A stretch of DNA of 64,000 nucleotides, taken from the IMG/VR virus record IMGVR_UViG_3300033066_001054. The stretch is one strand, 5' to 3'. Numbering within the stretch: the stretch's first letter is position 1; the number at the start of each line of letters is the position of its first letter. Shown here piece after piece: positions 11,547-59,393 of the stretch. A model generated the notes under the pieces. The model was not told where the DNA came from. It ran no database searches and worked only from the letters and a program-made list of their open reading frames with translations. A program made the translations under genes and the position numbers. Origin of the DNA: a virus. Taxonomy: Duplodnaviria > Caudoviricetes.

Positions 11547-12785
11547 ATGTCAAAAAATAACACAAAAACAGAAAGCCAAGACTTGGCAAAACGCATAGAG
11601 GAGCGGAGAAAGGTCGTTGAGGCTCGTCAGAAGAAATACGGAATCCCAAAGAGCACACTGTTAGTTGGCGGAGAGCACGAGAAATACGATTTCGTACCGC
11701 TTGGTATTTCAGAAATCGACTCTAAGCTCAAGACCAAATCTATTACCGGAGAAGAACACTTTGGACTCTTGCGCGGTACTATTGTAGAGTTTTGCGGACC
11801 ATCTATGTCTGGTAAAACCTATGCCGCATATCATTTAGCCAAAGAACATCAGAAACTCGGTCTTAGGGTGCTCTTTGTCGATATTGAGCGCGGTTACTAT
11901 GAGCCACGGGCAGTACAGCTCGGGGTAAATATTGAAGACCCAGACCTTTGGGAAGTCCAGAAAGTCACGTTTGCCGCAGGTACAGTTGGCGACTATGTCG
12001 TTGAGTGTGTCAACAGCGGTGACTACGGACTCATTATTGTTGACTCAATTGCCACTCTTATCCCAGATGCTGACTTTGACAAGTCGCTAGAAGACAACGC
12101 CAAAGTGGGTGCTCACGCCATGTTCATGGGTCAGTTTTTGAGAAAGCTGGTCTCGAGCAAAATGGAAGAGAACTTGACCACTGTGGTACTCATCAATCAG
12201 TTCAGAACAGGTTCTGGCGCAATGCCTAACAGTTTCACAGACAAATCGTCTGGTGGTAAAGCTGTGGAGTACTGGTCTCGTATCAGACTATGGTTTGCTC
12301 GAATTGGCGGAAAAGACGGATGGGTAATGGATGGCAAAGGCAACCGCGTTGGCGGTCGTTCTCGATGCACCATCTACAAAACCAAAACAGGTGGCCAAGA
12401 CGAAATCGCAGAATTCCCTGTGTATTTTGTTCCTGCTGACAATGACTTGGTAGGAGAGTTCCTGCACAGAACAATCAACAACAAGGACTTCGAGGGCATT
12501 GTAACACACACTGCGCCTCGTGGAAGCCGTGAGAAGCTATTCCGATATGTTGATGAGACTACTGGCGAGCTTATTGCCACTCCAGACAAGTATGAGTTCT
12601 GTATTGCAATGATGCACGCTGGTCCGCCTGAAAAGCGACCGCGCACTGATAAATCAGACACCATGTTTGAGTACATGTGCGCCAGGTTGAAACTCAAGGA
12701 AGACCAGATTGAGGCACTTGTAGAGCGCATCAAAAACCCACCTGCTGATGATAATGACTCAGGTCTTGAAAGTGAACCAGACTAA
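11547..12785 (+). CDS. recA: RecA/UvsX recombinase
   Basis: Walker A GPSMSGKT, FVDIE, IIVDSIA, LINQFR, SGGKAVEY. Confidence 0.92.
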   Translation: MSKNNTKTESQDLAKRIEERRKVVEARQKKYGIPKSTLLVGGEHEKYDFVPLGISEIDSKLKTKSITGEEHFGLLRGTIVEFCGPSMSGKTYAAYHLAKEHQKLGLRVLFVDIERGYYEPRAVQLGVNIEDPDLWEVQKVTFAAGTVGDYVVECVNSGDYGLIIVDSIATLIPDADFDKSLEDNAKVGAHAMFMGQFLRKLVSSKMEENLTTVVLINQFRTGSGAMPNSFTDKSSGGKAVEYWSRIRLWFARIGGKDGWVMDGKGNRVGGRSRCTIYKTKTGGQDEIAEFPVYFVPADNDLVGEFLHRTINNKDFEGIVTHTAPRGSREKLFRYVDETTGELIATPDKYEFCIAMMHAGPPEKRPRTDKSDTMFEYMCARLKLKEDQIEALVERIKNPPADDNDSGLESEPD

Positions 12786-32334: not shown

Positions 32335-32883
32335 ATGATTGTGGACGCTGAAACCCTGTCACAAATGACCAGGCTTGCCAGTGCATATGACATGCACGGT
32401 CAATACGAGGCTGCAGATATTTTGGATGCAGTTCTTGTTCGCGTTGCACAGGCCACTGGGCCATTCAATATGAACACACCGATGGAGGGTCGTATGCAAA
32501 AATATGACCGCTACCACGAAAAAGAACTGGATGGTGTTGAGCAAGACCGTCAAAAACACCCCAGATTAAGACCAACAGACTACGTTGACGATGGCACCAC
32601 AGATGAAGACATCGGCAAAGATGAAGCAGTACCAACTGTGCCCCAGCGCAAGAAATTCAAAAAACCAGACAGTGACACCATTTTTAGCATGGACGACACC
32701 GACCCCAAGAAGGGTGGCAATCCATTCCGAATGCACGATAAAGGCACTGCTGGATGGGGATTTATCACCTATGCACCGGATAGTGCTGGCATGTCTGGAC
32801 TAGACAAATTCACCTGGGAAAACAAGCGCGGCATCTACGACAATGCATCGGATAGATACAAACTCTTGTTGCCGCAGACTTAA
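32335..32883 (+). CDS. hypothetical protein with an N-terminal LD-x-x-G-x-Y/F-x-EAD-type motif
   Basis: RLASAYDMHGQYEAADILD. Confidence 0.65.
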   Translation: MIVDAETLSQMTRLASAYDMHGQYEAADILDAVLVRVAQATGPFNMNTPMEGRMQKYDRYHEKELDGVEQDRQKHPRLRPTDYVDDGTTDEDIGKDEAVPTVPQRKKFKKPDSDTIFSMDDTDPKKGGNPFRMHDKGTAGWGFITYAPDSAGMSGLDKFTWENKRGIYDNASDRYKLLLPQT

Positions 32884-32963: not shown

Positions 32964-33485
32964 ATGCCCACACCAATTGGTCTAGTATCACAACAATCAG
33001 CTTGGAATTACTTGACTCAAGGCGACGACAACTTTAGTCTTTCTGACATTCAAAAGAATCTGCTTGAAATGAGCGGTATTCCTGTTCGCGAAGCGTCTAA
33101 GACTGACCCAAGAATTGTTGTTGCGCTTGAGATGATTCTCAAGAACGAATCACAAGATTTAACTGCGCTTGCAGAAGCAGTCGGCAAACCACGACACGTA
33201 TACAACGTGCCTAGCGAAATAAGTGACTATGAATTGATTGGTCTCAAGACTGCTGGATTAGTCCAAGGTCATGGTCGAGCCGTCAGCATCACTGACAAAG
33301 GCAAGGAAGCCATTCGCATGTATTGGTTGAACTCAAGCAACAAGTACAAGGACTCTAAGTCAGCCGAGTTCGTACATCCATGGAACAAGCAAGCATCGGA
33401 TAGCGCAGACAACATCAGGACCGCGTCTATTAACCGACGAAAGTTTGCCGATAGCAACTATCGCAAATTCCAAAGCGAGGAATAA
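32964..33485 (+). CDS. hypothetical protein, winged-helix-like
   Basis: LIGLKTAGLV..VSITDKGKEAI resembles a wHTH wing. Confidence 0.55.
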   Translation: MPTPIGLVSQQSAWNYLTQGDDNFSLSDIQKNLLEMSGIPVREASKTDPRIVVALEMILKNESQDLTALAEAVGKPRHVYNVPSEISDYELIGLKTAGLVQGHGRAVSITDKGKEAIRMYWLNSSNKYKDSKSAEFVHPWNKQASDSADNIRTASINRRKFADSNYRKFQSEE

Positions 33486-33486
33486 C

Positions 33487-34260
33487 ATGAAGTCTACACT
33501 CCACGCACAGGCAAAAGAAATTGCTAAGGTAATGCATCGCATTGCCGCGTGGAGCAACGACTACCCAGAGCTCAAAAAGAAGAGCGCGAACCTTATCAAG
33601 TTGCCACCAGTGTTTCTTGGCGGAGACAATGGTTCACCTGCCGATGGCAGAAAGAACCTTGAGGCAATGATAAAGGTCTTGGCAGATTATCAGCTTAGCG
33701 GGTTGACGCTCAACGAATTGCCCCAAAGATACGCGTCTTATGGCGGGACTGTCAAAGGCGACGAAATAGGAACCAGACGAATTCATAACTGGATGCACCA
33801 AGTTGCATTCGGGATTCGCGCGGCGATGATTGAAATGAACGATGACGAAGGTGACGAGGCCATAAGAGTGGCATCAAACGTTGCTGAGGTTCTCGACCAA
33901 TCTCCGCTTGTCTTTGTAGCAAGAGAGGGCAATGAATACCGGCCGCTGCGATACGCTTCTCGAGACGCCAAAGAACGATGGCTATGCGAAGAAGTAGTGC
34001 AGCAAAGACTCGGTACAAACTACAACAGTTATGGCGCACAAATCACCGATGATGAATGGTGCCAAAACGGAGTTGGTATGCAGTATCGAGTGGCACACTC
34101 GTCACTCAAAAGCAGCATCGAAAAATTGGTGAAACAGGCTCAAAAACTAGACCAACTTGGTCAATACACAGAGGCCGACACCATAGATGAGGCTTTGTCT
34201 AAGATTCAACGAGGAAGCAATGTCTTAGACACATTCAACGACACACAGGAAGCAAATTAA
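33487..34260 (+). CDS. hypothetical protein with a C-terminal LD-x-x-G-x-Y-x-EAD motif
   Basis: LVKQAQKLDQLGQYTEADTID; ATG 33487 follows the previous stop. Confidence 0.65.
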   Translation: MKSTLHAQAKEIAKVMHRIAAWSNDYPELKKKSANLIKLPPVFLGGDNGSPADGRKNLEAMIKVLADYQLSGLTLNELPQRYASYGGTVKGDEIGTRRIHNWMHQVAFGIRAAMIEMNDDEGDEAIRVASNVAEVLDQSPLVFVAREGNEYRPLRYASRDAKERWLCEEVVQQRLGTNYNSYGAQITDDEWCQNGVGMQYRVAHSSLKSSIEKLVKQAQKLDQLGQYTEADTIDEALSKIQRGSNVLDTFNDTQEAN

Positions 34261-34261
34261 C

Positions 34262-37200
34262 GTGAACATTAAGAATCTGCTTGGTAAGTTAAGCATTGGT
34301 CGCGCCGGAGTATCCACCGGTGCTGGTAACATTGTGCGCACAGGTGCGCCAGAAGACGCATTTCGTTCTGGCGTCGCAGAGTTTGTTCGCAAGGCACAAA
34401 CCGAAGAACCAATCGCGGCTGGAATGGGTGCTCAAACAAGCCCCAAGCGACGCATGACACATCCAGTCATGTTGGTGTCTCGTTTTAAGTATCCATACGT
34501 CAAGACCAAATCTGTACCAGGTGAAGAAGGTGAAAAACCAACCAAGGTTGAAACCGGTGAATTAGGGTGGAAAACGACCCCAAACAAAGATGTTGCTGAC
34601 GAAGCCGTTAATGGCCTTTATGCCTATGTGTTGTATCTTTATGAAGACACGGCAACTGGTCAAGATTTAGTCCTTGGTCAGCCAATTGAAGAGCAACTTG
34701 CAAAATCTAAAGCAACACAACAGCCATTGCTGGACGCTAGTATCCAACCCACTCACGTGGATACTCCAGATTGGTACAAAGCTCAAAAATCTCAAAAGGC
34801 TAAGCCAAAGCGAGTCAAGAAGTCAGGACCAGAAGATACCCTGAAAAGATTTGCCGCCGCTGGTGAAGCCGGCGATATTGATGCGCAGACCAACGATTAT
34901 TCTTCAGACCGCGAAATTGAATCTGCTGAATCGCGATACAAATTCAAGGGCAAGATTGTTCGATTTACCACCGACCCATCGAATCCAGAAGGCCAGGCTG
35001 CTAAATTTGGGGCCCATGTTGTCCCTGCGTCTAGCATGGGATATCGTGCGTATGAAGTCATGCCAAGTGCAGTGGCTGAAGATTTGTATGTAGAGCCAGA
35101 CGGAGAAGACCCATCCAAGGTACCAACCTGGACTAAGTCCATTAAAATTCCGACAGAAGAATCGCCATCCGCATATGGAACAAGTTTTAGGTACCGATTC
35201 TCCAATGGAGAACCCATTCCAACACTTAATGGCAACAAACATGTTTTGTCAGAACTGTTAAGCGTTAATGGTGAAAAAGCACCCAAAGACCCAGGCATGA
35301 ATGCCGATTTCAACATCTATGAATTCATGACTGCAAATGACCTTTGGGGGCAAATGGATAACTCAGGTCGACTGCCATCAGCAATCAAAACACAAATCGC
35401 AGATGCCGAATCAGAAATTCAATCAGCACCAGAACTTGAGCACTTCACTCTTGGCGGCGGCTCGCTTATTAATCTTGGTGGCAAAAAGGATTCTATCATG
35501 TCAGAAGAGAACCTTCTGGCTAGGGCACTGTATCATTTGCGCAATCCATCAATGTTCACTTATGTTAACACAGATGGAACCGAAGCATTTCGCCCTCGCG
35601 TAGCTGATGAACCAAACATTGCGCCATTAGCAACCCTAGACAAGCAATTACACGCCGCGCGACAGGCATATCGAGAACTATACGAACAACTCAGTCCAGC
35701 AGAAAGAAAAGCCAGTCCAGAACTTGCGGAGGCCGCAGAGCGAGCTAATCAAATCGGCATCAAGTTTGTTGATTTGATGGCGGCTAAATATCCGTCCAAA
35801 TTGCGCGAATTCGCACTCAAACAACCATATGTTGGTCACGCGCCTTCCGGCGAGCACAATAAACCTGGAGGAAAACACGAAAGTGCATATTCTCTAAGTC
35901 CAACATCTCATTTGTCAGACCAGGGCAAAACACTTGCGACTTATGAATCAGGTGGAGGATTGCAAAAACTCAATGACGACGACAGAAAGCTGTATGCACT
36001 TGTCAAGTCATTCGAACGCAATGCCGACAATGCGCTTAATAACCAGGCAAAAACACTACACAACCAGAAGCATGCCAAGCTGGTTGAGTCACCATCCGAA
36101 TCTGGTGAACCATACAAAATTCCCACTCCGCGCGACGCCGGTGGGGAATGGTCTGAAGCTGCCGGAAAGTCTATCGACTTCATGGAGAATCACTGGTTGC
36201 AAAACCATTTCTTGAGCGCAGAAGACAGGACTGCAATTTCAGAATTGCAAAACAAACTTGCGGCCGAAGGAAAGCAGTATACATGGGGTCAGGTAGCTAT
36301 TGCATATCTGAAGAACCAAGATAGGCTTAAGGTCAAAAAGTTCACCGAGCGCATTGGGATGCTTCATTCACCAGAGCACTTCTCGATAGAGGGGCCGTTC
36401 ACATTCAAATTGTCAGTAGACAATGCAGAAGACAGCAATGATAGCAATGACACTGAGTCATTCACGTTGTACAACTACATCCCAATTTCAGAGGCCGGCC
36501 AAAAACTAAAGAACGATGTAATCAAACAGCATCTTTTTAACAGTAAAGAAGTTGAACTAGCCGAACGTGTTTTTGACAGAAAACCATTCAATAATGGTGA
36601 CGGCACAGAGGAGGAGCATGAAAACAATGCTTTGTTTTCCATTTGGGCTAGTTGGGCAATAAAAGCCAAGCGGGCACAAGTCGCAGAGCGCACCAAAAAG
36701 GCATTGGCATTGCAAGAAGCCAAGGAGAAATCCAAGACTGAAAATGCCAGGGGCAAGCCTAATGGCTGGCCATATGCTCTAACATCTCAAAAGTTTAGTG
36801 ACGAGGAGCGAGCAGAATTTGCTGGCAACCTTGAGGAATTTGTCAATGATATTAAGTACAAAGCCGGAGCGGTAATTGACCATGAGCGCAAAGTAGTCTA
36901 TATCAATCCAGATGGTTCTCAGGTCAAACTGCCAAACTCATTGCCTGTGCAACTGCCGGCTGGTGCCAAAATGCCAATGCCGACATCGAGGCTAAAAAGA
37001 ATCAAGGACAAAGATGTACTAGCGCAATACGGCATCGTGTCAATTAAAAATGTGCTATACAGTACTGCAAACAGTCAGCCTGTTGCAGTACAAGATGATG
37101 CGTTAGTCATTGGCGACGATATAGTCCCGTTGGAATCCTTGCGCGAAATGACCGATAGTGAAATTTTAGACAACTATCGACTGTTTCAGCGCAACGGCAA

Positions 37201-40200
37201 GTATTATTCTGTTGCTGAAAAAGACAGGGTGACTGGTCCCATTACAGAAGTTTTGGCCCGGGGCGGAGAGAAAATTGCGTTACCGACTGAAACACTTGAT
37301 GAAAACGGACTACAATTGCTTATCAAATACACTGAGCAAACTACGGGGCAAAAACTTCGTGGCGGGCAAGTACACACATATGAATCTGATGATGATAAAA
37401 TCAAGATGAGTGGCGTGTACTCCGAAATGCTTAACAACGGTGCTTCGCCAAAAAATGCATACGAGCAGGCCAAAAAGGCTGTTATGCGTGAAAAGCTCAA
37501 TAGCGTTGCTGTGCAATGTCTTTCTGGTAGAGAACAAGCAAATCCAACATACATGCACGCAGCTAAGCACTGGGCTCCAAGAATGATTGAAACAATACAA
37601 TCACTAGGAGACAAGGACGAATTAGAGCTTATAGCCGAAAACTACGGCGGGTTTGATAACTTATTGATGGCAGCAAAATCTGGCGAACTTGACGCCGATG
37701 ACGCTAAAAGTCTTGTAGATACGTACAATGTTGTTACCGGAACAACACCACAACAAGGTGCGTACATCAAGCCGATAATGCAAGATGCTTTACTGCATGG
37801 ATATCAAAAAGATTCAACGCCTGGATTGCCCAACAACAAGTTCTGGCATATGATGATGTCTAATGCAGGTCGTAGATTCCTAGACAGAAAGATTGACAGC
37901 GAATCTGGTAATGATTTGGCAAGCCAAGCAATGCTTCATTTGATTGAAAAGCCAGAATCACCACTTGAAGGGTATGATTTGCATAGGATTTTACCAAAGT
38001 CATCGGTGGCATTGTTAGAAAAAACACTTAAGCCAGAAGAACGGTTAATGCAACGTGCAAACGCGCGATATAAAACAGGAAAGCGCACAGTTGTTGAAGA
38101 ATGGCAGGCAAAACCTTTGCCAAGATTGTTATTCGACCACATTGATTGGATGGTAACGCCTGGTATTTTCCCCCAAGAAATAATTGACCAGGCCCGAGAG
38201 CTGGCGGGTACTGAATTGGTTAAACAAGAACGTCTCAAGATGTTTCCTGATGATATCAGTAAGATGTTCCCTGGGGCAACTGATGAAGAGGATTCTCAAA
38301 AGACTCTCGAGGAAAAGGCTGCCCAAGACCCAGTAAAACGAAGGTTCCTAAATCAGCTCAATTATGCCACTGCTGTGGCTATTGTTCTACAACGCCAGGC
38401 GTCACAATCAGAGAAGCACCCGCAACAAGATATCTGGGATATCATCATGGATGAACCAGGTCTTGACCCGGCTTCTCCACAGTGGAATGCCAAGCATAAA
38501 CTCGCACAGCACGAAGCACAAATACAAAAAACCTCTGATGCTGTGCAAGAACAAGCAAAATTGAGAGAGCAACTTTCAATCAAGAGCATGTTCGATGTGC
38601 CAGATGATGTGCCAGTTGTCCAAATTAGCAATGAAGAAGCAGACGCGATTATTGACCAACCAATGGTTAATGCGCTCACTACATCATTGTTGCAGTCAGA
38701 AGACAGAGACAAGATTAGTGTTTTGGGCAAAGCAAATCGCGCCATGTATAACGAGGCCACTAGTTCAAAGAGTGGTCATGCCAGGGGCGTTGTATATCCC
38801 AAGAATTCAGTGGCTGTTACAAGCACAACGCCATTGATGATAACAGACGAAGAAGGCAGAGAGCGCGATGTTACTGGATACACACCAGAAGAGTATGAGG
38901 GTGTTCACAACGAGGGTGAGGCACCGCTCTATAGTGATGAAAAGGGATTGCCAAAAGAACTTTTGGCAATGATTAACAAAAACACCAAAAACATACTTCA
39001 GGGCACTGACAACGAAGAGGGTCTGACATTTTTGGGTGAGTTTAGACAAAAACTCAACAAAGACTTGATGGGTGAAAACCAGGGTCACATCAATCGTGCT
39101 CAAAGGGCTGAGGCAATGTACACCATGATATACAACCTGGTGTCTAAGTCAAAGAAAAGCCTGTCTGACAATGAAAAGAGGTTGGCGAGGGCCGAGGCAA
39201 ACAACGCCAATAGAACCACTATCAACTCGCTCAAAGCCGAGATTGAAAATGACACAAATATCTTGTCTATGATTGAGTCATACGATGTGTTTGAGCATCT
39301 GTCCAAGATGGTTCATTGGGGTCGAGAGTTCAGCAAAGTCGTCAACAAACTTGAGGATTTGGGTCTACAGGAGAGAGAAATTACATCTCATCTTCTTGAC
39401 AGATACCCAAGCGCTCAGCAAAACATGATGGCTGCGGCAAGGATGTATGAACCAGATAGTGCAGACGAGCTTGTTAGTATAGGTCGAGCAAAAACCAAAT
39501 ATCACCAAGAGATAAAGGACGCGGCACTGGCGTATGACCAATCTGCTAAGGAATTGTGGAACTTTCTCACGAGGACGACATACATGGACAAGCGCAATAT
39601 CGCAAAGCTCGAAGCCATGGGCATGGGTCTGAACATTAGCCAATCCGGTGCAGAGCAAGAATCAAGGCTGACTCAAGATGACCGCGATGAAGTCTCGAAT
39701 ATGGTATTTGACAAACTTGACAAAGAAGCCAGGTGGTTTGAGAACCCAAGCAATAGAATCCCAGCATATCAAGGGTCTGCACTCGGTGTTGAACAACCCA
39801 AAAAGGGTGAAGCAACAGTACCAATTGACTCATTGACACTGCCAGGTGACAAGAAAGAAATACCTAACGGAATTAACCCCATAGACCTGTACAAATTCTT
39901 GTCGCGTCGAGGTGTGCTTTTTGCACTTGAAATGAGCAAACTGGATAAAATTTCCGGCAGACAAAAAACTGCTGGTGCGCAAGGAAAATACACTCAAGAC
40001 TTTACTCAGCCAAAAGATATGGCGTGGTTTGTGCATAACTGGTTGCAAAACACACACATTCCAGACGGGGTTCTGGTGCCTGGGGCCAATGGTCTCAACA
40101 CACTTGACACCGCAATTGGTGAGATAGAACGCAGATTCGCCAAGCCTGGTGGTATTTATTGGAGTAATGCTGGTGAATATAACCCATTGCTTGAGCACGC

Positions 40201-41881
40201 AGATGTGACCGCAATGGGTTATAGCCTGCTTGCAAAATATGTAGACCAATTCGCGAAAAATAGCGCGGACAAATCCAGGGTTAATGAGTTTATTAGCGCC
40301 GCATGTGATATGATTCCAAAAGATGTTGAAAACATTCACAACAGCGTTGGTTACGACAAACTCTCGGATGATATCAAGAACAAGGTAGATGACGCCATTA
40401 AAGTGGCGGCCAACGCAGGCAAGAACCCTGGGTTGGTGGATAGGCTGAAACAGGAATACGTAAACAAGAAAAATCAATACGTGGGCACTGACAAAGACAA
40501 CTTCTCTGAAGCCAAAACTGCTGTGTCAATGCAAATCGCAAATCATAATGTCATCAATGAATTAGTCCATATGTCGCCAGATAATCAACTATTTGTCAAC
40601 AATGGTTCTGAATGGGCGTTTGGTGGTGATTTTGAGACCATCTCGGCTTATATTGCGCACACTATTGCACAAGAAGTTATTGCATCAATTAAACACCTTG
40701 AGCGGCCTGGTAACTGGGAATTGGTAGGATTGTCACCAATTCAAATTTACACAAGAATGAAGCCTGGTGATAGGCTTGATGTCAATGATATTGACGCTTA
40801 CATGTCTCAGAGATTGTCAGAGTTCCAAAAGCTGTTAACATCGCAATGGAAAGTTGAGTCTATCAGCGATATGAACGAAGATGGTGAGCAATCAGGATTT
40901 CATCGAGACATCAAGAAAATCATCAACGATGCCGCAGGAACACTTCATAATTTGCTTTACGACAGTATGGGTGGTGGTGGCCAGGATATTCAAGTGCCTT
41001 TGTCACATGCTATGCGTGAGTTGCAATCTGACGCACAGTTGGTTAATACAAAATTCCAAGAAGACCTGTATGAAAAAATCAATGACCCAAGCAAAGACTT
41101 GCGAGGCGTACATGATGAACACATATTACCGGCACTAAGGGCGGCTAATAAAGACGGTGTCGACTTGGCAACTGCCAAGGCTATACGTAAATGGTCGGCA
41201 GGAGAACTGGAGTGGCCGTTGGTTACGCTTGGTGTCAAAAACAATGTGCGTGAGCCAGCAAAGGGCGAGACCCCAGAGGCATATGCACAATATCTGGCAA
41301 GTTTGGCCAACGAAGGTAAGAAGAGTGCAGAATCATTGATTGGATATGGTCCGTCATCTGTCAAGCGCATTTCAGCATCTGCACTTCGTAATGATGAGCT
41401 TGCGGGCAAAATACACCCCATGCTTTCTCACCAGATTGCACACCGGCTAGATTATTTGAGAAACAGCGATGACTACAACGCCGCCGTCAAAAACAGCGAA
41501 AAAGCCCACTTCCAAAATATGAAGAAAAAGGGTCAATATGGTCAATATGCTGACGTACCGCCAGGCAGCAACAAGTTCGTAAATGGAAACATTGGCGTAC
41601 TTAGCCTAGACGGCTTGCACCCATTGCATTCGTACATATCTGGCGGCTACCAGGTTGGGCGACATGGCAACGCAAAGGACAAAAGGGGTCTAAGACAAGT
41701 TGCGCCCGAACCACAACAAGTACCAAATGTACCTGTTCAGGTTCCTGTTGATGACGCAGAAAAGCAGGCTGCAGTCATTGATAAACTTGTGCGATATGCG
41801 CTCAAGCTAGATGCAAAGGGTAGATTCGCAGAAGCAGACTTGGTTGACTCGTTAATTCATAAGCTAGAGGTGATGGTGTGA
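34262..41881 (+). CDS. very large (2539 aa) protein, probable internal virion protein
   Basis: Uninterrupted 7.6-kb ORF in the head module; C-terminal LVRYALKLDAKGRFAEADLVD motif; no catalytic motif recognised. Confidence 0.75.
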   Translation: MNIKNLLGKLSIGRAGVSTGAGNIVRTGAPEDAFRSGVAEFVRKAQTEEPIAAGMGAQTSPKRRMTHPVMLVSRFKYPYVKTKSVPGEEGEKPTKVETGELGWKTTPNKDVADEAVNGLYAYVLYLYEDTATGQDLVLGQPIEEQLAKSKATQQPLLDASIQPTHVDTPDWYKAQKSQKAKPKRVKKSGPEDTLKRFAAAGEAGDIDAQTNDYSSDREIESAESRYKFKGKIVRFTTDPSNPEGQAAKFGAHVVPASSMGYRAYEVMPSAVAEDLYVEPDGEDPSKVPTWTKSIKIPTEESPSAYGTSFRYRFSNGEPIPTLNGNKHVLSELLSVNGEKAPKDPGMNADFNIYEFMTANDLWGQMDNSGRLPSAIKTQIADAESEIQSAPELEHFTLGGGSLINLGGKKDSIMSEENLLARALYHLRNPSMFTYVNTDGTEAFRPRVADEPNIAPLATLDKQLHAARQAYRELYEQLSPAERKASPELAEAAERANQIGIKFVDLMAAKYPSKLREFALKQPYVGHAPSGEHNKPGGKHESAYSLSPTSHLSDQGKTLATYESGGGLQKLNDDDRKLYALVKSFERNADNALNNQAKTLHNQKHAKLVESPSESGEPYKIPTPRDAGGEWSEAAGKSIDFMENHWLQNHFLSAEDRTAISELQNKLAAEGKQYTWGQVAIAYLKNQDRLKVKKFTERIGMLHSPEHFSIEGPFTFKLSVDNAEDSNDSNDTESFTLYNYIPISEAGQKLKNDVIKQHLFNSKEVELAERVFDRKPFNNGDGTEEEHENNALFSIWASWAIKAKRAQVAERTKKALALQEAKEKSKTENARGKPNGWPYALTSQKFSDEERAEFAGNLEEFVNDIKYKAGAVIDHERKVVYINPDGSQVKLPNSLPVQLPAGAKMPMPTSRLKRIKDKDVLAQYGIVSIKNVLYSTANSQPVAVQDDALVIGDDIVPLESLREMTDSEILDNYRLFQRNGKYYSVAEKDRVTGPITEVLARGGEKIALPTETLDENGLQLLIKYTEQTTGQKLRGGQVHTYESDDDKIKMSGVYSEMLNNGASPKNAYEQAKKAVMREKLNSVAVQCLSGREQANPTYMHAAKHWAPRMIETIQSLGDKDELELIAENYGGFDNLLMAAKSGELDADDAKSLVDTYNVVTGTTPQQGAYIKPIMQDALLHGYQKDSTPGLPNNKFWHMMMSNAGRRFLDRKIDSESGNDLASQAMLHLIEKPESPLEGYDLHRILPKSSVALLEKTLKPEERLMQRANARYKTGKRTVVEEWQAKPLPRLLFDHIDWMVTPGIFPQEIIDQARELAGTELVKQERLKMFPDDISKMFPGATDEEDSQKTLEEKAAQDPVKRRFLNQLNYATAVAIVLQRQASQSEKHPQQDIWDIIMDEPGLDPASPQWNAKHKLAQHEAQIQKTSDAVQEQAKLREQLSIKSMFDVPDDVPVVQISNEEADAIIDQPMVNALTTSLLQSEDRDKISVLGKANRAMYNEATSSKSGHARGVVYPKNSVAVTSTTPLMITDEEGRERDVTGYTPEEYEGVHNEGEAPLYSDEKGLPKELLAMINKNTKNILQGTDNEEGLTFLGEFRQKLNKDLMGENQGHINRAQRAEAMYTMIYNLVSKSKKSLSDNEKRLARAEANNANRTTINSLKAEIENDTNILSMIESYDVFEHLSKMVHWGREFSKVVNKLEDLGLQEREITSHLLDRYPSAQQNMMAAARMYEPDSADELVSIGRAKTKYHQEIKDAALAYDQSAKELWNFLTRTTYMDKRNIAKLEAMGMGLNISQSGAEQESRLTQDDRDEVSNMVFDKLDKEARWFENPSNRIPAYQGSALGVEQPKKGEATVPIDSLTLPGDKKEIPNGINPIDLYKFLSRRGVLFALEMSKLDKISGRQKTAGAQGKYTQDFTQPKDMAWFVHNWLQNTHIPDGVLVPGANGLNTLDTAIGEIERRFAKPGGIYWSNAGEYNPLLEHADVTAMGYSLLAKYVDQFAKNSADKSRVNEFISAACDMIPKDVENIHNSVGYDKLSDDIKNKVDDAIKVAANAGKNPGLVDRLKQEYVNKKNQYVGTDKDNFSEAKTAVSMQIANHNVINELVHMSPDNQLFVNNGSEWAFGGDFETISAYIAHTIAQEVIASIKHLERPGNWELVGLSPIQIYTRMKPGDRLDVNDIDAYMSQRLSEFQKLLTSQWKVESISDMNEDGEQSGFHRDIKKIINDAAGTLHNLLYDSMGGGGQDIQVPLSHAMRELQSDAQLVNTKFQEDLYEKINDPSKDLRGVHDEHILPALRAANKDGVDLATAKAIRKWSAGELEWPLVTLGVKNNVREPAKGETPEAYAQYLASLANEGKKSAESLIGYGPSSVKRISASALRNDELAGKIHPMLSHQIAHRLDYLRNSDDYNAAVKNSEKAHFQNMKKKGQYGQYADVPPGSNKFVNGNIGVLSLDGLHPLHSYISGGYQVGRHGNAKDKRGLRQVAPEPQQVPNVPVQVPVDDAEKQAAVIDKLVRYALKLDAKGRFAEADLVDSLIHKLEVMV

Positions 41882-49692: not shown

Positions 49693-52600
49693 ATGTTACG
49701 AAAGGGCATATCAGGAAGCCTCATTGGGCGCAATCAAATAGAATTCATTGACCCTGCCGAGGCTCGGCGGGTAATCATTGCTGCCAAAAAGGGTAAACAA
49801 AGCCTGTACGCAGACCCATCAGATGTACTGAATCGAGACGTTGACGGCGATTTCGATTTGTTGAAAGAAATGAACGACCGCCAGGGATACAATCTCTTGT
49901 GGGTCAGATGCCGTGCAATTGACGCAGACACAGTCAACGCAAACGGCGATTACTTCTCAGCAGAAGAACTTCTTAAAGAAGTCATTCACAACGGCAAAAA
50001 GGTCCCGGCCTACAAAACATTTGAAGGCTGCCCAATCCACACCAATCATGATAACAAAGACATCATGAAGGCCAAGGGTGAGGTCGTCTATGCAGAGTGG
50101 GACGATAAAAACCAGTGCGTGTGGTGTACGTTCTACATCTCAGAAGACGCATACCCAGAGATTGCCAATGGTATTCGTATTGGTATGATGAGCGATGTCT
50201 CAATGGGATGCACGGTCGAAAGCGGCTTGTGTTCTGTTTGTGGCAAAGAAGCCGTTCGTGTTGATGACTACTGCGAGCACCTTAAGAAATACAAAGGCAA
50301 GAGATTGCCTGGCACGAACACTAAGGTATACGAAAAGAACAAGGGTATCAAGTTTATTGAACTTTCGCTGGTCAATGATGGCGCATTTGACAGTTGTGCA
50401 ATTAGCGAACTATACGACCAAGACGAGCTAACCCAAAAAGCGCTTGAACTCAATCGCAGAGTTGCAGAAATTCGAAATCATGTTTTGACCGCTGGTCATC
50501 TTACGGCCGGAATGACGCCATCTGTGCGCAACGCATATGAAGGCATGTTGAGAACTGTCGTCAGTACAACAACAACTGCTGTCAGAGTAGCACAGACGCA
50601 AGTAGACAATCCGCAATTGCTGGCCACTAATGGCGCAAATGCCAATTCTACCGTTGCTGGAATTTTGAAAGCACTGGGAATGGATGCTAGGCAACAACTC
50701 AATGTACTTGACTTGCTTAATGTTGCGCTTAACTTCCTAGAAGTGGCAATTATGCAAATGTTCACACGCAAAGACAATGTTGATTTGCAACATGTGTCAA
50801 AGATTGCCAAAGCGATGTCTGACCTTCAAGGCACAATGCAAGACCTGATTGATGACGGTGTTGATTCACCGGTCGGAGCAACAGCGGGTACTGGTGGTGC
50901 CGCAGGCACATTACTTAATCCAGGTGGTGGTCAAACAGGACAAGCACCTGCTGGTCAAACACCGGGGCAGCCAGCACAACCATATAGCCCGGCAGAAGGT
51001 GGTGTCGGACAAATGATGTCACCTGTTCAAGTGAGTGAAAGGTCATTCACTACTGAAAAACCACTCAACCCCTTACTTGGTGCAAGCAATAAACACCAAT
51101 TGGTATGGGCAAACAAGGATGGTTCAGAGGAGCGCGAAGTATACGCATCGCGAAAATCTGGCACCGATAATATAGAACGATTTGGTCAAAGTCTATTGGC
51201 TTTGGCCGAAAGCGTTGGGGCTGGCCCACTGGCGGCACCAATGTCCACACGTGCCGCTAATAACGAGCAACCAGTGAGAAGCACCAAGAAAGTGCAAAAC
51301 AACGGAGACACAACCAAGATGAAAAACCCATTCCAGAGAATCGCAAGCAAATTGCGTGAAAGGAAGCCACTCGAAGTCTCGTTCTCAGCAGAGGCTCACA
51401 GTCCTGATACCAACCACAGAATTGTAGTTTCAACGAGAGGAGATATTGAAGGCTACTATATGAACCGGCTCGCCAATTGGAAGCCGCAACTCAGCGACGA
51501 CATCATTAGTGCAATTGAACAAGAGAATCTTGATTTTGCGCTTCCTGTTTTAATGGAAGACTTCCAGAATCATGTTCGAACTGCACAAGCCAAAAACATT
51601 GACATTTGGTCAGATATTGACCTTGAGCCAGAAGGCGAAAAGGATGTCAAAGAAAACGCACTTGAGGGTGAACGACACCCAGTAAAGGGCGAAGGCGAAA
51701 TCATTGATAGCTATGTCAAGACAAAGCGAACAGAACCCGCTGGTGACAGAACCAGAGAGGATGAACTTGAAGCCAAAAGAACAGGCACGGATTCTAAGGT
51801 CAAAGAAGAGTTGCTCGAAAACGCTGGTCTGTATGCACGTCGAGACAATGGCCAGGAAGTACACGACTTCCTAGTTGACGACGCACGCTGTGGATGCCCC
51901 GACGAACATATTGAAGAGAGACTCAAGGGTCGACATGGTCGCAATGACAAGGTGGAAACACGCAAACTCGCAAGCAATATCGCTACCGAACTCGGTCGCG
52001 CCGCTTATGCTGCTCGCGTAACACCAGAAGAGATTATCGAAGTCTCTACAAAGATTGCACAACGAGAAGACCTTGAGGAACTAATCGCATTAGCATCTCT
52101 GGGTACAGATACTCGAGAGCGAACTGCTCAACGACACGCATTCTTTAACAACTCATCTGTAATGCTGGGTGCAGAGAACGCTATCTATCACGGTCTCGGC
52201 AAGATTGTCAGTGATGACATCAAAGCCGGCGACGTTGTCGATGGTCTTCGTGCAGTGATTAGTGAGCGAGAACTCGCTGGCAAATTGATTACTCGAATTG
52301 CCAAAACAATGGTTGAAAACTCACCAACAACTTATGCCGATGTTGTGGTCAAAGCATCTCGTGAAGAACAACTGCGAACTGCTTTGAATTCTCTTGCAGA
52401 TGGCGAGACTGAAACTAGTCGAGGTCATCTCAAGGCCGTGCTTTGCGCTCTAGCAGGAGCTGCAGACGAGTGCCAAGCCGCACCTGAAGAAGTTATCAAT
52501 GTGATTGCATCACGCAATCCTGGTGAAATCTTCGAAACACTCGGCATGTACAACAGCGCAAGTGCCCGAGAGGCACGCAAGACCCTTCGACAAAGAGAAG

Positions 52601-53949
52601 AGTTCTACGGCAAGCGAATGGCATCAAAGAAAGATGTCGAGAACACAGTGTTCGGCTGGATGTCAGATTTTGTCCACGATGGTCGAATCGACAGCTACGC
52701 ACTTGCTGAAGCCGCAAGCCTTCTTGGAGCACGACCTGTTGCTGCAACCAATTTGCTTGGTCGACTACTCGAGCGACAAGCAGCTATTTCGGTTACGGAT
52801 GAAAAATGCACAACCAAGAGGCTTACAGCCACTGTGAGTGACTTCGAAGACCTAGACCCCAAGTCAAGCGACTTCGACCAGCAGTTCAGAATGCGTGCAA
52901 TGGACATCTTCCGACAAGCTGGTTATGATGTTGACGATGGCACATTCAATCTTACGAGTTTGAGCGTTGACCAGTCTGGAAACATTCAAGCCGAGGTTTC
53001 TGCACGACTCACCAAGACATTCTGTGTCGAGGGAAGCACAGCAGGCGCAGGCATGGGCGTAGTAGACGACTTGCCAGTTGAGGCCACTATTGCAGAAAAT
53101 GCACCAATGGAAGACGAATCTGGCAATCTCTATACTGTTTCAGCCATGGATGTGCTTGGAATGGAGCGAACTGCTCAAGCCGCACCAGGAATGGGCGGTG
53201 CAATGGGCGGCGGAATGGGAATGCCACCAGCAGCACCAGCAGGCGGTGGTGTTGACCCATTAGCCGGCGCTGCTGACCCAATGGGTGGAGGTTTTGCCTC
53301 AATGACAGTGCCTAGCGAATCTGGGGCACCAGGAACCGAGGCTGTTGATAACCCTGCAAATGCAGACGATATGTCAGAGCCAGGCACCAAACAACCATGG
53401 GGAACCGTGTGTCCTGTTTGTGGTTCGAAGAATGTCAGCATTGCTAACGGCGAAGGCGAATGCCAGAGCTGTGGCACACAACTGAAGTTCAAGCTGATGG
53501 TCGAAGCCGCACCAAGCACAGATGATGCTGGTGGTGATGGTGAAGGCGCAGATGCTGGAATGGGCGATATGGGTGCAGATGCTGGAATGGGTGATATGGG
53601 CGCAATGCCTGGTGGCGATATGGGCGCAGCACCTCCAATGCCTGCAGGTGGAGCACCAACCGACCCAATGATGATGCAAGCAAGTTGGACAAGTTCGCCA
53701 TTGGTATGGCAACGATTTGCCTCGGCTGGACAAGGCGTTTCTGAAAAAGAAGCAGCTAAGGCCAGACAAGCAATGAAACAATTGCCAGTTGGCCATGTTT
53801 GCCCAGGTTGTGGCGACCGCGAACAAATCGAAAAGATTCGAAACAAGACCATTTGTACTGCTTGCGGTACGGTGGCTGTTTCCAAGGTCGCAGCAGTAGA
53901 AGGACAACCAAATCTGCTGTCCAACACCATCTACTGGATACTCGAATAA
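49693..53949 (+). CDS. prohead maturation protease with a long scaffold-like C-terminal extension
   Basis: VNANGDYF..EEL..YKTFEG.P.HTNH..KG.V, VSMGC.V...CSVCG..CEHL, FIELSLV..GA; C-terminal CxxC zinc ribbons; lies between portal and MCP. Confidence 0.8.
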   Translation: MLRKGISGSLIGRNQIEFIDPAEARRVIIAAKKGKQSLYADPSDVLNRDVDGDFDLLKEMNDRQGYNLLWVRCRAIDADTVNANGDYFSAEELLKEVIHNGKKVPAYKTFEGCPIHTNHDNKDIMKAKGEVVYAEWDDKNQCVWCTFYISEDAYPEIANGIRIGMMSDVSMGCTVESGLCSVCGKEAVRVDDYCEHLKKYKGKRLPGTNTKVYEKNKGIKFIELSLVNDGAFDSCAISELYDQDELTQKALELNRRVAEIRNHVLTAGHLTAGMTPSVRNAYEGMLRTVVSTTTTAVRVAQTQVDNPQLLATNGANANSTVAGILKALGMDARQQLNVLDLLNVALNFLEVAIMQMFTRKDNVDLQHVSKIAKAMSDLQGTMQDLIDDGVDSPVGATAGTGGAAGTLLNPGGGQTGQAPAGQTPGQPAQPYSPAEGGVGQMMSPVQVSERSFTTEKPLNPLLGASNKHQLVWANKDGSEEREVYASRKSGTDNIERFGQSLLALAESVGAGPLAAPMSTRAANNEQPVRSTKKVQNNGDTTKMKNPFQRIASKLRERKPLEVSFSAEAHSPDTNHRIVVSTRGDIEGYYMNRLANWKPQLSDDIISAIEQENLDFALPVLMEDFQNHVRTAQAKNIDIWSDIDLEPEGEKDVKENALEGERHPVKGEGEIIDSYVKTKRTEPAGDRTREDELEAKRTGTDSKVKEELLENAGLYARRDNGQEVHDFLVDDARCGCPDEHIEERLKGRHGRNDKVETRKLASNIATELGRAAYAARVTPEEIIEVSTKIAQREDLEELIALASLGTDTRERTAQRHAFFNNSSVMLGAENAIYHGLGKIVSDDIKAGDVVDGLRAVISERELAGKLITRIAKTMVENSPTTYADVVVKASREEQLRTALNSLADGETETSRGHLKAVLCALAGAADECQAAPEEVINVIASRNPGEIFETLGMYNSASAREARKTLRQREEFYGKRMASKKDVENTVFGWMSDFVHDGRIDSYALAEAASLLGARPVAATNLLGRLLERQAAISVTDEKCTTKRLTATVSDFEDLDPKSSDFDQQFRMRAMDIFRQAGYDVDDGTFNLTSLSVDQSGNIQAEVSARLTKTFCVEGSTAGAGMGVVDDLPVEATIAENAPMEDESGNLYTVSAMDVLGMERTAQAAPGMGGAMGGGMGMPPAAPAGGGVDPLAGAADPMGGGFASMTVPSESGAPGTEAVDNPANADDMSEPGTKQPWGTVCPVCGSKNVSIANGEGECQSCGTQLKFKLMVEAAPSTDDAGGDGEGADAGMGDMGADAGMGDMGAMPGGDMGAAPPMPAGGAPTDPMMMQASWTSSPLVWQRFASAGQGVSEKEAAKARQAMKQLPVGHVCPGCGDREQIEKIRNKTICTACGTVAVSKVAAVEGQPNLLSNTIYWILE
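53545..53598 (+). repeat. 27-bp coding tandem repeat (GADAGMGDM twice)
   Basis: ggcgcagatgctggaatgggcgatatg / ggtgcagatgctggaatgggtgatatg. Confidence 0.75.
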
Positions 53950-56830: not shown

Positions 56831-57691
56831 ATGAGCAACATCCGAAACGTATATGGCATTGACGAGCAAAACGAAGAGTTTCTCGCCGCCGCTATGGACA
56901 CCCCCGAAGGTCGCGTCGCATTAGCGCAAGCTATGGTTGAACCCATTAAGACATCTTTGATGTACCAAGGTGTAGGCCGCAAGCTGCTGATGGTTGACGA
57001 ACTGCCGCAGGGTGCCCTTCCTCGCTACGAGCGAGACATCGCAGTTAAGTCTTACGTAATGAGTAAGCGTGGTTCAGTTCCAACGTCTATCGTTGAAGCT
57101 GAAGAGTTGATGGTTCCGGTTCTTGAAATCGCTTGTAACCCAACCGTCAAGCTCAACGAAATCCGTGCCCGACGATTCTATATTGTCGACCGCGCACAGG
57201 TGAGGGCCAAGGACTCATTGCAGCGACAAGAGGACGCCGAAGTCTTCCGCGTTATCAACGCGGCTGTACCTTCAGCACACAACATCACGGTTACTGGTTC
57301 ACTCCAGCCCGAGAACATCAACCTCGCTCTGTCTCTCATTGAAGAGCACGAGTTGATTGGTGCCAAAATTGTTGTGCATCCTCAGCGCTACAAAGACATC
57401 CGAACATGGGGCAAGGAGTTCTATGATGAAGCGACAACTCGCGACATCTTGATGACCGGACTTTTCGGTCACTTGTACTCCGCTGACATTCACGTCAGCA
57501 CCATCGTTCCAAAGAACGCTGTCTACGTATTGGCACCGGCCGCCTTCGTTGGCGCCATGCCAGTCCGCCAGGACATCACCGTTCTTCCGAGCGACGACCC
57601 TCGACGACTCCGCCTCGGCTGGGTCATCTTCGAGGAACTTGGCTTCGCCGTTATCAACGACTACGCCACCGCTCGAATCATCGTTAGCTAA
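56831..57691 (+). CDS. major capsid protein (HK97 fold)
   Basis: Canonical position, SD AGGAGA, C-ending codon bias, downstream terminator; GRKLLMVDELPQGALP.YE.D, EIACNPTV, GWVIFEELGFAV motifs. Confidence 0.88.
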   Translation: MSNIRNVYGIDEQNEEFLAAAMDTPEGRVALAQAMVEPIKTSLMYQGVGRKLLMVDELPQGALPRYERDIAVKSYVMSKRGSVPTSIVEAEELMVPVLEIACNPTVKLNEIRARRFYIVDRAQVRAKDSLQRQEDAEVFRVINAAVPSAHNITVTGSLQPENINLALSLIEEHELIGAKIVVHPQRYKDIRTWGKEFYDEATTRDILMTGLFGHLYSADIHVSTIVPKNAVYVLAPAAFVGAMPVRQDITVLPSDDPRRLRLGWVIFEELGFAVINDYATARIIVS

Positions 57692-57709: not shown

Positions 57710-57739
57710 ACAGGCCCCGCCATAGGCGGGGCCTGTTTT
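57710..57739 (+). terminator. intrinsic terminator of the capsid operon
   Basis: ACAGGCCCCGCC-ATA-GGCGGGGCCTGT followed by TTTGTTTG. Confidence 0.88.
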
Positions 57740-57756: not shown

Positions 57757-57981
57757 GTGGTCGAAAAACAACATAATACAGAGTTGAATAATGGATTCTA
57801 TGACGCAGCGACACAGCGCGATATATTGAAGACAGGTTACTACGGTCATTTGTATTCAGCAAGTATACATGTTAGCACAATGGTTCCTAGAAACACTGTG
57901 GAAACTATGGATAGGGTGTTGCAATCAGAAGAACAGCGTAAGCAACTTTCTGATTACATGCGGTCGTGGTTGAAGAAATGA
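57757..57981 (+). CDS. MCP-fragment mini-protein 1 (MCP aa 197-231 plus shared tail)
   Basis: FYDAATQRDILKTGYYGHLYSASIHVSTMVPRNTV vs MCP FYDEATTRDILMTGLFGHLYSADIHVSTIVPKNAV (26/35 identical); tail LSDYMRSW; start GTG 57757 (alternative TTG 57742). Confidence 0.85.
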   Translation: MVEKQHNTELNNGFYDAATQRDILKTGYYGHLYSASIHVSTMVPRNTVETMDRVLQSEEQRKQLSDYMRSWLKK

Positions 57982-58223
57982 GCAACGGCGAAATTATACT
58001 ACCAGGTGCCTTCGATGGCGCATTGCCGATGAGAGAAGACATAACGATTTTGCCAGCCACACCTGTGCCACGAGATAAACAGGGACTTGGCTGGGTGGTT
58101 TTTGAAGAAGTTGGTGAAGCAATAATCAACAACTATGCTATTGATAGAATAGTGGTCAGTAATCAAACTCAAGAAGATATCAAACGAGCGCTGGAAGAAT
58201 ACATGAGGAAATATGCAAGGTAG
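57978..58223 (+). CDS. MCP-fragment mini-protein 2 (MCP aa ~234-286 plus shared tail)
   Basis: PGAFDGALPMREDITILP..LGWVVFEEVGEAIINNYAIDRIVVS vs MCP PAAFVGAMPVRQDITVLP..LGWVIFEELGFAVINDYATARIIVS; tail LEEYMRKY; ATGA overlap. Confidence 0.85.
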   Translation: MSNGEIILPGAFDGALPMREDITILPATPVPRDKQGLGWVVFEEVGEAIINNYAIDRIVVSNQTQEDIKRALEEYMRKYAR

Positions 58224-58434
58224 CAGTGAATCAAAACCATATAAGGCGTTTGGGCGCAAGCTGTTAATGGTTGACGAATTACCTCAGGGTGCATTAGCAA
58301 AATACGAGCGTGACGTACAAGTGAAATCGTATGTCATACCACGTCGTGGTGGTGTGCCCGGAGCTGTTTCAGAACCTTATGCACCAATTGACACACTCAA
58401 GGAATATATTAGGAAGTGGATGAGTAGTGGCTAA
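58213..58434 (+). CDS. MCP-fragment mini-protein 3 (MCP aa ~45-84 plus shared tail)
   Basis: GRKLLMVDELPQGALAKYERDVQVKSYVIPRRGGVP vs MCP aa 49-84 (28/36 identical); tail LKEYIRKW; SD GAGGA. Confidence 0.88.
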   Translation: MQGSSESKPYKAFGRKLLMVDELPQGALAKYERDVQVKSYVIPRRGGVPGAVSEPYAPIDTLKEYIRKWMSSG

Positions 58435-58660
58435 AAACACAAATCAACAAAGAGAGGACCAAATAACAGCGGCGCTTAGCACCCCAGAAGGCAAGGCAGC
58501 ACTTCGTGCCGCGATGTCCGCGCCAATACAGACTTCGATAATGTATCAGAACATCGGCGCGAAACTGCTAATGGTAGATTCATTGCCAGACCCTTATGAC
58601 GAATATCCGAATGCCCGTGACGCTGTTAGCGATTACATGAAAAAATGGGTGCAAAAATGA
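58427..58660 (+). CDS. MCP-fragment mini-protein 4 (MCP aa ~11-59 plus shared tail)
   Basis: AALSTPEGKAALRAAMSAPIQTSIMYQNIGAKLLMVDSLP vs MCP AAMDTPEGRVALAQAMVEPIKTSLMYQGVGRKLLMVDELP; tail VSDYMKKW. Confidence 0.85.
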   Translation: MAKNTNQQREDQITAALSTPEGKAALRAAMSAPIQTSIMYQNIGAKLLMVDSLPDPYDEYPNARDAVSDYMKKWVQK

Positions 58661-58851
58661 CCGCGAACCCACTGGCTAACATCAATGCAGCTCTCGAGGC
58701 ATTGGAACAACACGAATTGGCCGGCGCAAAAATCATCATTCATCCGAGCAGGTATGCCGATATTGAGCGATGGAGAAGAGAAGATGACGCCACAATACGC
58801 GAGCAGTTTAGCAAGTACATGCGAGGATATTTGGGTCAAGACATCAAGTAA
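58657..58851 (+). CDS. MCP-fragment mini-protein 5 (MCP aa ~160-193 plus shared tail)
   Basis: NINAALEALEQHELAGAKIIIHPSRYADIERW vs MCP NINLALSLIEEHELIGAKIVVHPQRYKDIRTW; tail FSKYMRGY; ATGA overlap. Confidence 0.85.
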   Translation: MTANPLANINAALEALEQHELAGAKIIIHPSRYADIERWRREDDATIREQFSKYMRGYLGQDIK

Positions 58852-59393
58852 TATTCAGAGACATCTTGACCCATGGCTGCTTCACATTTGTCAACAATTT
58901 TGACAATGTAGTCTGATATTCCTTTATGTTGCAATGAACTGAGTTTCGACATTTCACTGAGTGTGTATGTCATTTCTTTGAATGATTCCATACGTCGCTC
59001 ATCTTGTGCCAACATTTGTTGACCAATCAAAACACCGAACATCTGCGGGTCTTGGACCCCAAAATCCTTGCTGTGGTATTTGATTGTGTGAATAGACCTG
59101 ATTGCGTGTTCTGCATGCTCGAATTCTGTTAAACAACGAATTAAAGAGGTGTACAGTGCTGCCAATTCTCCAGTCATCTGCACTTCGCCAGACACCAACA
59201 CTGGCAATAGACTGTATTGGATTGTTCGAATACAGGCACTCATTTCAGCGTTGGGCTCGAATGCCATGTTCGATGGCATTTCGTCCGGGGACTCATTGAG
59301 TTGTTGCTGAATGGTCGACGTGTTATTGTCGATTCTCTCTTGCTCAATTCCCTGGATGTCGTCTGGAATACTTGCCTTTCTAAATCGTTTCAT
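58836..59393 (-). CDS. hypothetical helical protein
   Basis: 185-aa ORF coupled to the upstream minus-strand gene by ATGA overlap. Confidence 0.6.
   Translation of the reverse strand: MKRFRKASIPDDIQGIEQERIDNNTSTIQQQLNESPDEMPSNMAFEPNAEMSACIRTIQYSLLPVLVSGEVQMTGELAALYTSLIRCLTEFEHAEHAIRSIHTIKYHSKDFGVQDPQMFGVLIGQQMLAQDERRMESFKEMTYTLSEMSKLSSLQHKGISDYIVKIVDKCEAAMGQDVSEYYLMS

Follow-up and report, generated by a model that had tools for sequence, protein, structure and literature searches.

Why would a giant phage carry, directly behind its capsid gene, five very small genes that each hold a different piece of the capsid protein and all end alike? The question arises in a 64-kb stretch of DNA (64,000 nucleotides, the window hereafter) from the IMG/VR virus record IMGVR_UViG_3300033066_001054, assigned to the Caudoviricetes, whose major capsid protein (MCP) indicates a giant phage related to Bacillus phage G. 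Five overlapping plus-strand genes, F1-F5, occupy positions 57757-58851 directly behind the MCP gene and its terminator. Each F protein comprises 35-56 consecutive MCP residues (50-74% identity), followed by a linker unrelated to the MCP and then by a common C-terminal tail (Table 1). Judged from sequence, the tail is the constant module of a five-gene operon in which each mini-protein would present a different, mostly family-invariant piece of an HK97-type capsid protein.

A common C-terminal tail on capsid-derived mini-proteins

The core of the tail is phi-x-x-Y-[MI]-x-x-[WY]-phi, where phi is a hydrophobic residue. Across all stop-to-stop frames of a six-frame translation of the window, the pattern Y[MI][RK]x[WY] has exactly five matches, each located two to six residues from the stop codon of one of F1-F5. 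Block shuffles gave a mean of 0.34 and a maximum of three near-terminal matches. A profile built on the tail scores F1-F5 at 26-42 bits and everything else in the window at about 1 bit or less. A sequence-only reading of this DNA had quoted five C-termini and the five DNA strings that encode them, all of which are found in the window as written. It had also stated that the motif is absent from the MCP, which both the six-frame pattern scan and the tail profile bear out.

Numbering from the central tyrosine (Y0), the 42 distinct tails collected from the window and its relatives all have Leu, Val, Ile or Phe at position -3, Tyr at 0, Met or Ile at +1 and an aliphatic residue or Ala at +5. Position +4 is Trp or Tyr in 41 of them, and the single exception is a His. 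The consensus proposed earlier thus stands for the invariant Tyr, for [MI] and for the hydrophobic face, but not for a basic residue at +2, where Arg or Lys occurs in only 32 of 42 tails (76%) and which therefore lies outside the invariant core. Position -1 is acidic in 79% of the tails, and the polar positions vary.

The conserved positions follow an i, i+3, i+4, i+7, i+8 spacing, which places them on the same side of a helix. The window tails have a net charge of +1 to +2, and in four of the five the helical hydrophobic moment is higher than in shuffled sequences. An AlphaFold2 (AF2) model of F2 places a helix at residues 65-79 of 81 with moderate confidence (predicted local distance difference test, pLDDT, about 60-67 there; 50.7 for the whole model). 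Complex predictions of F1, F5 and F3, each with F2 as the partner and with separate family alignments, gave a score of 0.05, with the mark at 0.32, and weigh neither for nor against an association. We conclude that the tail is a genuine, selected C-terminal segment, predicted to form an amphipathic helix of about 12-18 residues followed by an end of two to six residues.

The tail is not detectably derived from the capsid protein, since alignments of linker plus tail with the MCP, whichever part is taken, score within the range of shuffled sequences (p 0.2-0.9). An origin from the MCP, for example from the E-loop strand AVKSYVM, was considered and rejected, because no tail outscores its shuffled versions when aligned to it.

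The remainder of each mini-protein is clearly capsid-like. The window MCP matches phrog_2522 (E 3e-68), shares 48.6% identity with gp27 of Bacillus phage G and matches the solved gp27 chain (PDB 6wkk) with an E-value of 1.5e-89. F1-F5 match this resident MCP in BLASTP with E-values of 4e-16 to 2e-19. F2, F4 and F5 also match phrog_2522 on their MCP-like part, and no other PHROGs family was recovered for F1-F5. Pfam gave no match above cut-off for the F proteins, and no curated family in Pfam or PHROGs covers the tail or the mini-proteins. Together the five pieces tile MCP residues 11-89 and 162-286, with overlaps, and residues 90-161, including the predicted spine helix, are present in no F protein. 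None of the five thus contains the full-length HK97 fold, with N-arm, E-loop, P and A domains in one chain. The pieces were placed on these domains according to general HK97 topology and not by a model; AF2 of the MCP from a 15-row alignment had a pLDDT of 37.5 and was unusable.

The pieces retain 74% of the columns that are conserved across the MCP family and 45% of the variable columns. Compared with the resident MCP, MCPs of a sister clade give higher scores with F1, F3, F4 and most F2 alleles, but not with F5. In the window, the pieces differ from the resident MCP gene at a proportion of synonymous sites (pS) of 0.79-0.95, which is saturated, and at a proportion of nonsynonymous sites (pN) of 0.15-0.35. 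A recent copying of the resident MCP gene was ruled out on the basis of this saturation and of a nucleotide identity of 54-70%.

The upper pS values merit an observation of their own. For 57757-58848 compared with 56831-57688, pS reaches 0.95, more than the value of roughly 0.75 that saturation would give; codon choice thus differs systematically between the pieces and the resident MCP gene. This shift could reflect the base composition of the surrounding island or the avoidance of recombination with the MCP gene.

Purifying selection on the tail peptide

The five reading frames are tightly packed. F1 likely starts at the GTG at 57757, with AAGG 5 nt upstream (the alternative is TTG at 57742), F2 at the ATG at 57978 and F5 at the ATG at 58657 (alternative ATG at 58645), which corrects the sequence-only reading. 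F1 and F2 overlap by 4 nt, with the F2 ATG on the F1 stop (ATGA); the F2/F3, F3/F4 and F4/F5 overlaps are 11, 8 and 4 nt, the last again as ATGA. Such packing raises the question of whether the common ending is a by-product of ribosome-binding sites (RBS) and start codons that lie inside the tail codons, which the sequence-only reading had itself named as the outcome that would undo its proposal.

Tail codons do contribute to the next gene. As the earlier caveat held, the tail codons contain an AGGA 3 nt upstream of the start of F3 and one 12 nt upstream of that of F4. In 5 of 16 junctions examined, in four cassettes (the window, L046, L061 and L062), the next ATG is made from the aromatic codon at +4 (xxA-TGG or TAT-G). 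These roles leave the residues at Y0, M+1, -3 and +5 unexplained. The F1 Trp codon is not used as a start, and F5, the last gene, keeps the motif without any plus-strand gene downstream.

Divergence between cassette alleles points in the same direction. The pooled ratio of nonsynonymous to synonymous substitution rates (dN/dS) is 0.14-0.33 in the MCP-like bodies and 0.07-0.27 in the last 20 codons, which hold the tail, and the tail dS is about that of the body (for example 0.59 and 0.62). A low dN/dS combined with an ordinary dS indicates constraint on the peptide and not on the DNA. The motif is thus not explained by RBS or overlap constraints.

Conservation of the cassette in related phages

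Further cassettes were reached by an F2 search and a tail-anchored profile in Logan, ENA and JGI assemblies. Eleven additional metagenomic contigs carry the cassette (L044-L048, L058, L059, L061, L062, L063 and L064), with constant gene order. L046, L058 and L061 contain all five genes in the order F1-F5, and the remaining contigs, which are cut by their ends, hold what those ends permit. In L044, the gene caller overlooked F1 and F4, which do not start with ATG, yet both are open frames with tails. The N-terminus of F1 differs between cassettes. The junctions overlap in all four cassettes examined, by 4-38 nt. The sequence-only reading had also made its case depend on the motif being conserved in homologous cassettes, and these contigs, with their share of the 42 distinct tails, show that it is.

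The F proteins of these cassettes range from about 96% down to 42-62% identity with those of the window. Where the MCP lies on the same contig, its amino-acid sequence is identical to that of the window MCP. The cassette forms the beginning of an island of lower GC content (about 57.7-61.6 kb; about 43-47% GC vs 51-57% in the MCP gene) that also contains five minus-strand genes. Between the window and L061, dS is saturated across the island, in the F genes and in the four minus-strand genes that were compared, vs about 0.22 in the flanking MCP and decoration genes. As the saturation extends over the whole island, the divergence of the F genes reflects the mosaic history of the island and not fast evolution of the F genes themselves.

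The closest public complete genome (L001, G001 among the genomes) is an IMG/VR contig of 478,840 bp that has terminal repeats. It shares about 92% DNA identity with the window over the head genes, and the two MCPs differ at one residue. L001 lacks about 1 kb, from the F1 start to mid-F5, so that F1-F4 and half of F5 are deleted and a short open frame with an F5-type tail at its end is left. The deletion indicates that the cassette is dispensable.

Beyond these contigs the cassette was not recovered. In 42 other IMG/VR relatives (MCPs 48-78% identical), the DNA available around the MCP gene, at most 6 kb to either side, contains no tail-bearing open reading frame (ORF), and no extra MCP pieces lie within 8 kb of gp27 in phage G. 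A blastn search with 6 kb against GenBank phages, an exact 39-mer search of IMG/VR, the F2 profile against JGI metagenome contigs and the F2 and F5 profiles against IMG/VR all returned no match.

Two of the more distant relatives carry capsid pieces of other kinds. L037, whose MCP is 63% identical, has three or four MCP pieces inside unrelated small ORFs downstream of its MCP gene, without a Y-M-x-x-W tail; one of these ORFs ends in ...KKINEYR, which faintly resembles a truncated F2 tail. In L003 (MCP 77% identical), a gene for a 488-aa LAGLIDADG-type homing endonuclease (6977-8443) directly follows the MCP gene, and a displaced 22-residue remnant of the MCP C-terminus (8650-8715) lies behind it. 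This arrangement shows one route by which capsid pieces can arise.

Two features are particular to single contigs. L061 has a 9-codon mini-ORF (MSELYIIKK, 7214-7251) before F1, whose stop overlaps the F1 start (ATGA). L064 encodes an Endonuclease_7 protein (PF02945, 3640-4074) beside the exonuclease gene, without a counterpart at the matching place in the window.

Confinement of the tail to the F proteins

The sequence-only reading had described the arrangement as an adaptor design, with a variable capsid-derived bait and a constant amphipathic helix, and had suggested that fragments of portal, terminase or tail proteins might carry the same ending. The first part holds, as a variable capsid piece with a constant predicted amphipathic helix is conserved and under purifying selection at the peptide level. 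The second does not. In the window the tail profile finds only the F family, and it finds no further carrier in G001 and four other related giant-phage genomes of 350-500 kb. In a collection of 5.8 billion proteins (word index, 25-84 aa) all matches are relatives of F1-F5. Among 1.84 billion cluster representatives of any length, the only extra matches are P0044 and P0045, which were discarded as carriers because they have internal tandem repeats and not C-terminal tails. The profile has 28 positions and thus limited sensitivity, and coverage of the cassette-bearing genome is the 64-kb window. Within this scope there is no sign that the tail serves as a general module on non-capsid baits, and such a role is not supported.

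Possible functions of the cassette

What could five capsid pieces with one common tail do? For the helix, the sequence-only reading had suggested hetero-oligomerisation of the pieces, docking on a shared partner or recruitment of a protease. No sigma-70-like promoter was found between the terminator hairpin and F1. Because the operon lies directly behind the capsid gene terminator without a promoter of its own, it is probably transcribed by read-through of that terminator. Expression would then be late, alongside the head proteins, and at a lower, sub-stoichiometric level. The tail may be a docking helix that brings all five pieces to one common hydrophobic groove, where the pieces would act as competitive mimics of conserved capsid-protein elements. 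The likeliest target would be the head-assembly machinery of this phage family (capsid protein or scaffold), whether that of a co-infecting relative or the phage's own. We favour this reading tentatively, by analogy with known systems, and regard it as possible rather than probable. Counted in its favour are a motif found on all five F C-termini and nowhere else, a conserved operon, an invariant hydrophobic face, peptide-level selection, the retained capsid likeness, the predicted helix, the terminator context, the likeness to sister-clade MCPs and the accessory status seen in L001. Head assembly is favoured as the target because of the position of the cassette, the retained assembly-invariant residues and two precedents, one for inhibition by fragments and one for a docking helix with a hook.

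Eukaryotic microProteins are short protein pieces able to titrate the partners of their parent. Engineered tiling fragments of essential Escherichia coli proteins likewise inhibit by titrating native contacts of the parent (PMC9245647). Like those dominant-negative fragments, the F pieces are short, keep conserved contact elements and tile the MCP in the manner of a fragment library; unlike them, the F genes are natural and selected and each has a constant tail, and inhibition by F proteins is an analogy. The second precedent is the scaffolding protein of phage 80alpha and CpmB of SaPI1, which have in common an 11-residue C-terminal amphipathic helix plus a hook that docks on the capsid protein (PMC5644958). 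As in the F proteins, a short C-terminal amphipathic helix with a few terminal residues is common to several proteins. The scaffolding protein and CpmB use the same docking site on an HK97-type capsid protein, at its N-arm inside the procapsid, and so compete, and such docking is proposed for the F tails by analogy. The differences are that the F tails have no sequence similarity to that helix, and that their carriers are capsid pieces and not scaffolds.

Several points weigh against a role in head assembly. Because the pieces also share 50-74% identity with the MCP of the phage itself, a poison of assembly would need some way of leaving its producer unharmed, and no feature of that kind was found. 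The RIIK hook of the 80alpha system, or any similar sequence, is absent from all 42 tails. A likeness of the tail to the C-terminal ends of other window ORFs, including those for the putative scaffold and the decoration protein, was considered and rejected, as they have no sequence in common. Outside its tail helix, F2 has a low-confidence AF2 model and is predicted to be largely disordered when alone. Finally, F alleles with about 42-62% identity beside an identical MCP indicate that fine co-adaptation to the resident MCP is not required, and this divergence fits any reader of conserved MCP features, host sensors included.

Host sensors are indeed the basis of the next reading, which we consider somewhat unlikely. 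Here the pieces would copy capsid features that host sensors recognise and occupy the sensors without activating them, and the tail would block activation or tie the sensor to a common phage partner. The preferential retention of MCP-family-invariant residues is consistent with such an immune bait, as are the placement of the cassette for co-expression with the MCP and its status as an accessory element within a low-GC island that varies. Major capsid proteins are recognised by several STAND sensors of bacteria (PMC13581612), and a conserved 29-residue region of T4 gp23, Gol, binds EF-Tu and triggers Lit (PMC3014915), which shows that a host can read short stretches of a capsid protein. Gol resembles the F pieces as a short, highly conserved MCP stretch read by a non-capsid partner; it differs in being part of a full-length T4-type capsid protein and not a separate gene, in having no tail and in activating defence (PMC3014915). 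In the Gol/Lit case a free capsid stretch turns the defence on, not off. The Avs sensors described so far recognise folds, which sits poorly with the predicted disorder of F2.

A third reading, which we judge unlikely, is that the five tails pack into a helical bundle and thereby join the co-translated proteins into one multivalent particle, compatible with either head assembly or a sensor as the target. In its favour, the conserved overlaps of 4-38 nt at the junctions would suit subunits made in equal numbers, neither the number nor the order of the five genes changes, and one hydrophobic face is conserved. Against it, the conserved face extends over about nine residues only, a short stretch for a stable bundle. 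Residues of the polar face are exchanged freely, and three or four of the L061 tails have lost their basic residues with no compensating change to be seen. We further speculate, with more doubt, that such a particle could be a 'pseudo-capsomer' that displays every conserved capsid surface and serves as a weapon or shield in conflicts. It would cap and poison the growing shells of co-infecting related phages or soak up host capsid-sensing receptors.

Short terminal address labels on cargo proteins are familiar from encapsulin and microcompartment targeting peptides. The F tail could similarly be a packaging signal that targets the mini-proteins into the prohead for delivery with the DNA, which we consider improbable. 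It is a terminal, linker-separated amphipathic peptide encoded beside head genes, and T4 internal proteins have only a targeting sequence in common (PMC3012670). The T4 sequence resembles the tail as one short terminal peptide that acts as an address label on diverse small proteins of one phage. It sits at the N-terminus, has about 10 residues, is cleaved off by the prohead protease and marks cargoes that have no relation to the capsid protein (PMC3012670), whereas the F tail is C-terminal and found on five capsid-derived proteins only. The N-termini of the F proteins are mutually unrelated, and thus no T4-type N-terminal signal is found in them.

Three head-region proteins encoded in the window have a terminal motif of another kind, A-x-x-[LY]-D-x-x-G-x-[YF]-x-[EA]-A-D-x-[ILV]-D (Table 1). 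Its presence shows that terminal motifs occur on head-region proteins here, which is in keeping with a packaging role for the F tail. It is also the better packaging-signal candidate in this phage. The F tail itself is confined to the five F proteins.

MinD and FtsA have a C-terminal amphipathic membrane-targeting helix, and a tail of this type could tether the capsid pieces to the inner membrane. The C-terminal amphipathic helix with aromatic and basic residues and the positive net charge of the window tails would suit such an anchor, but the basic residues are not conserved, the tails of L061 are roughly neutral while keeping the hydrophobic face, and position -1 is mostly acidic. We consider a membrane anchor very improbable.

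Last, the F ORFs might be what recombination or a homing endonuclease left behind at the capsid gene, with a common ending imposed by the next RBS and start codon; the endonuclease gene and displaced MCP remnant of L003, the AGGA in two tails and the five junctions with an ATG from the +4 codon agree with this, but it is hardly credible and is already contradicted by the selection data, given a dN/dS well below 1 in body and tail with ordinary tail dS, five frames that all stay open across saturated synonymous divergence, an F5 motif without a next gene, an F1 Trp codon that is not a start, and conserved residues at Y0, M+1, phi-3 and phi+5 that no overlap explains.

Genomic surroundings

The hairpin between the MCP gene and F1 has a 12-bp stem with 10 G-C pairs. 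It is kept in all the cassettes compared (the window, L044, L046, L058 and L061) and also in L001. The five minus-strand genes of the island encode a 185-aa protein, a DUF5856 protein, proteins of 305 and 95 aa and an RNase_T-type exonuclease. A convergent minus-strand gene (58836-59393) overlaps the last 16 nt of F5. Upstream, at 49693-53949, the head module encodes a 1418-aa protein with two pairs of zinc-ribbon-like CxxC motifs and long stretches rich in Gly, Ala, Met and Pro near its C-terminus.

Table 1. Positions of the capsid gene, the F cassette and related features (window coordinates, except for L037)
Feature	Position	Strand	Remarks
MCP gene	56831..57691	+	286 aa; source family of the five pieces; without tail
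Intrinsic-terminator-like hairpin and T-run	57710..57736	+	Between MCP gene and F1; strong
F1	57757..57981	+	MCP 197-231 piece, 74% identity; linker; tail ...LSDYMRSWLKK
F1 tail helix	57931..57978	+	Predicted; Y codon 57955-57957
F2	57978..58223	+	MCP 233-286 piece, 54% identity; linker; tail ...LEEYMRKYAR
F2 tail helix	58176..58220	+	Predicted, AF2; Y codon 58200-58202
F3	58213..58434	+	MCP 45-89 piece, 67% identity; linker; tail ...LKEYIRKWMSSG
F3 tail helix	58381..58431	+	Predicted; Y codon 58405-58407
F4	58427..58660	+	MCP 11-59 piece, 57% identity; linker; tail ...VSDYMKKWVQK
F4 tail helix	58610..58657	+	Predicted; Y codon 58634-58636
F5	58657..58851	+	MCP 162 to ~205 piece, 50% identity; linker; tail ...FSKYMRGYLGQDIK
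F5 tail helix	58792..58848	+	Predicted; Y codon 58816-58818
Head-region protein with the other terminal motif	32335-32883		182 aa; motif N-terminal; candidate packaging tag
Head-region protein with the other terminal motif	33445-34260		271 aa; motif C-terminal; candidate packaging tag
Head-region protein with the other terminal motif	34262-41881		2539 aa; motif C-terminal; candidate packaging tag
L037 ORFs with MCP pieces	8979-9305, 10187-10381, 11091-11723, 11901-12356		Pieces: N-arm region, 42-79, 229-270

Implications for giant phages

We found no published description of genes that combine a capsid piece with a common tail, and the design matches nothing described. Whatever their function, the F genes clearly exemplify very small genes that overlap and are under purifying selection, and in the relatives examined two of the five were overlooked by gene callers. 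The invariant Tyr, the Trp/Tyr face and the natural deletion variant make the idea of a docking helix on capsid mimics directly testable. If it is true, natural capsid excerpts joined to a common docking helix would form a new class of small effectors in viruses, and phages would be using fragment mimicry, which has until now been demonstrated with engineered fragments. The cassette would then offer a handle on giant-phage competition or on the evasion of capsid-sensing immunity.

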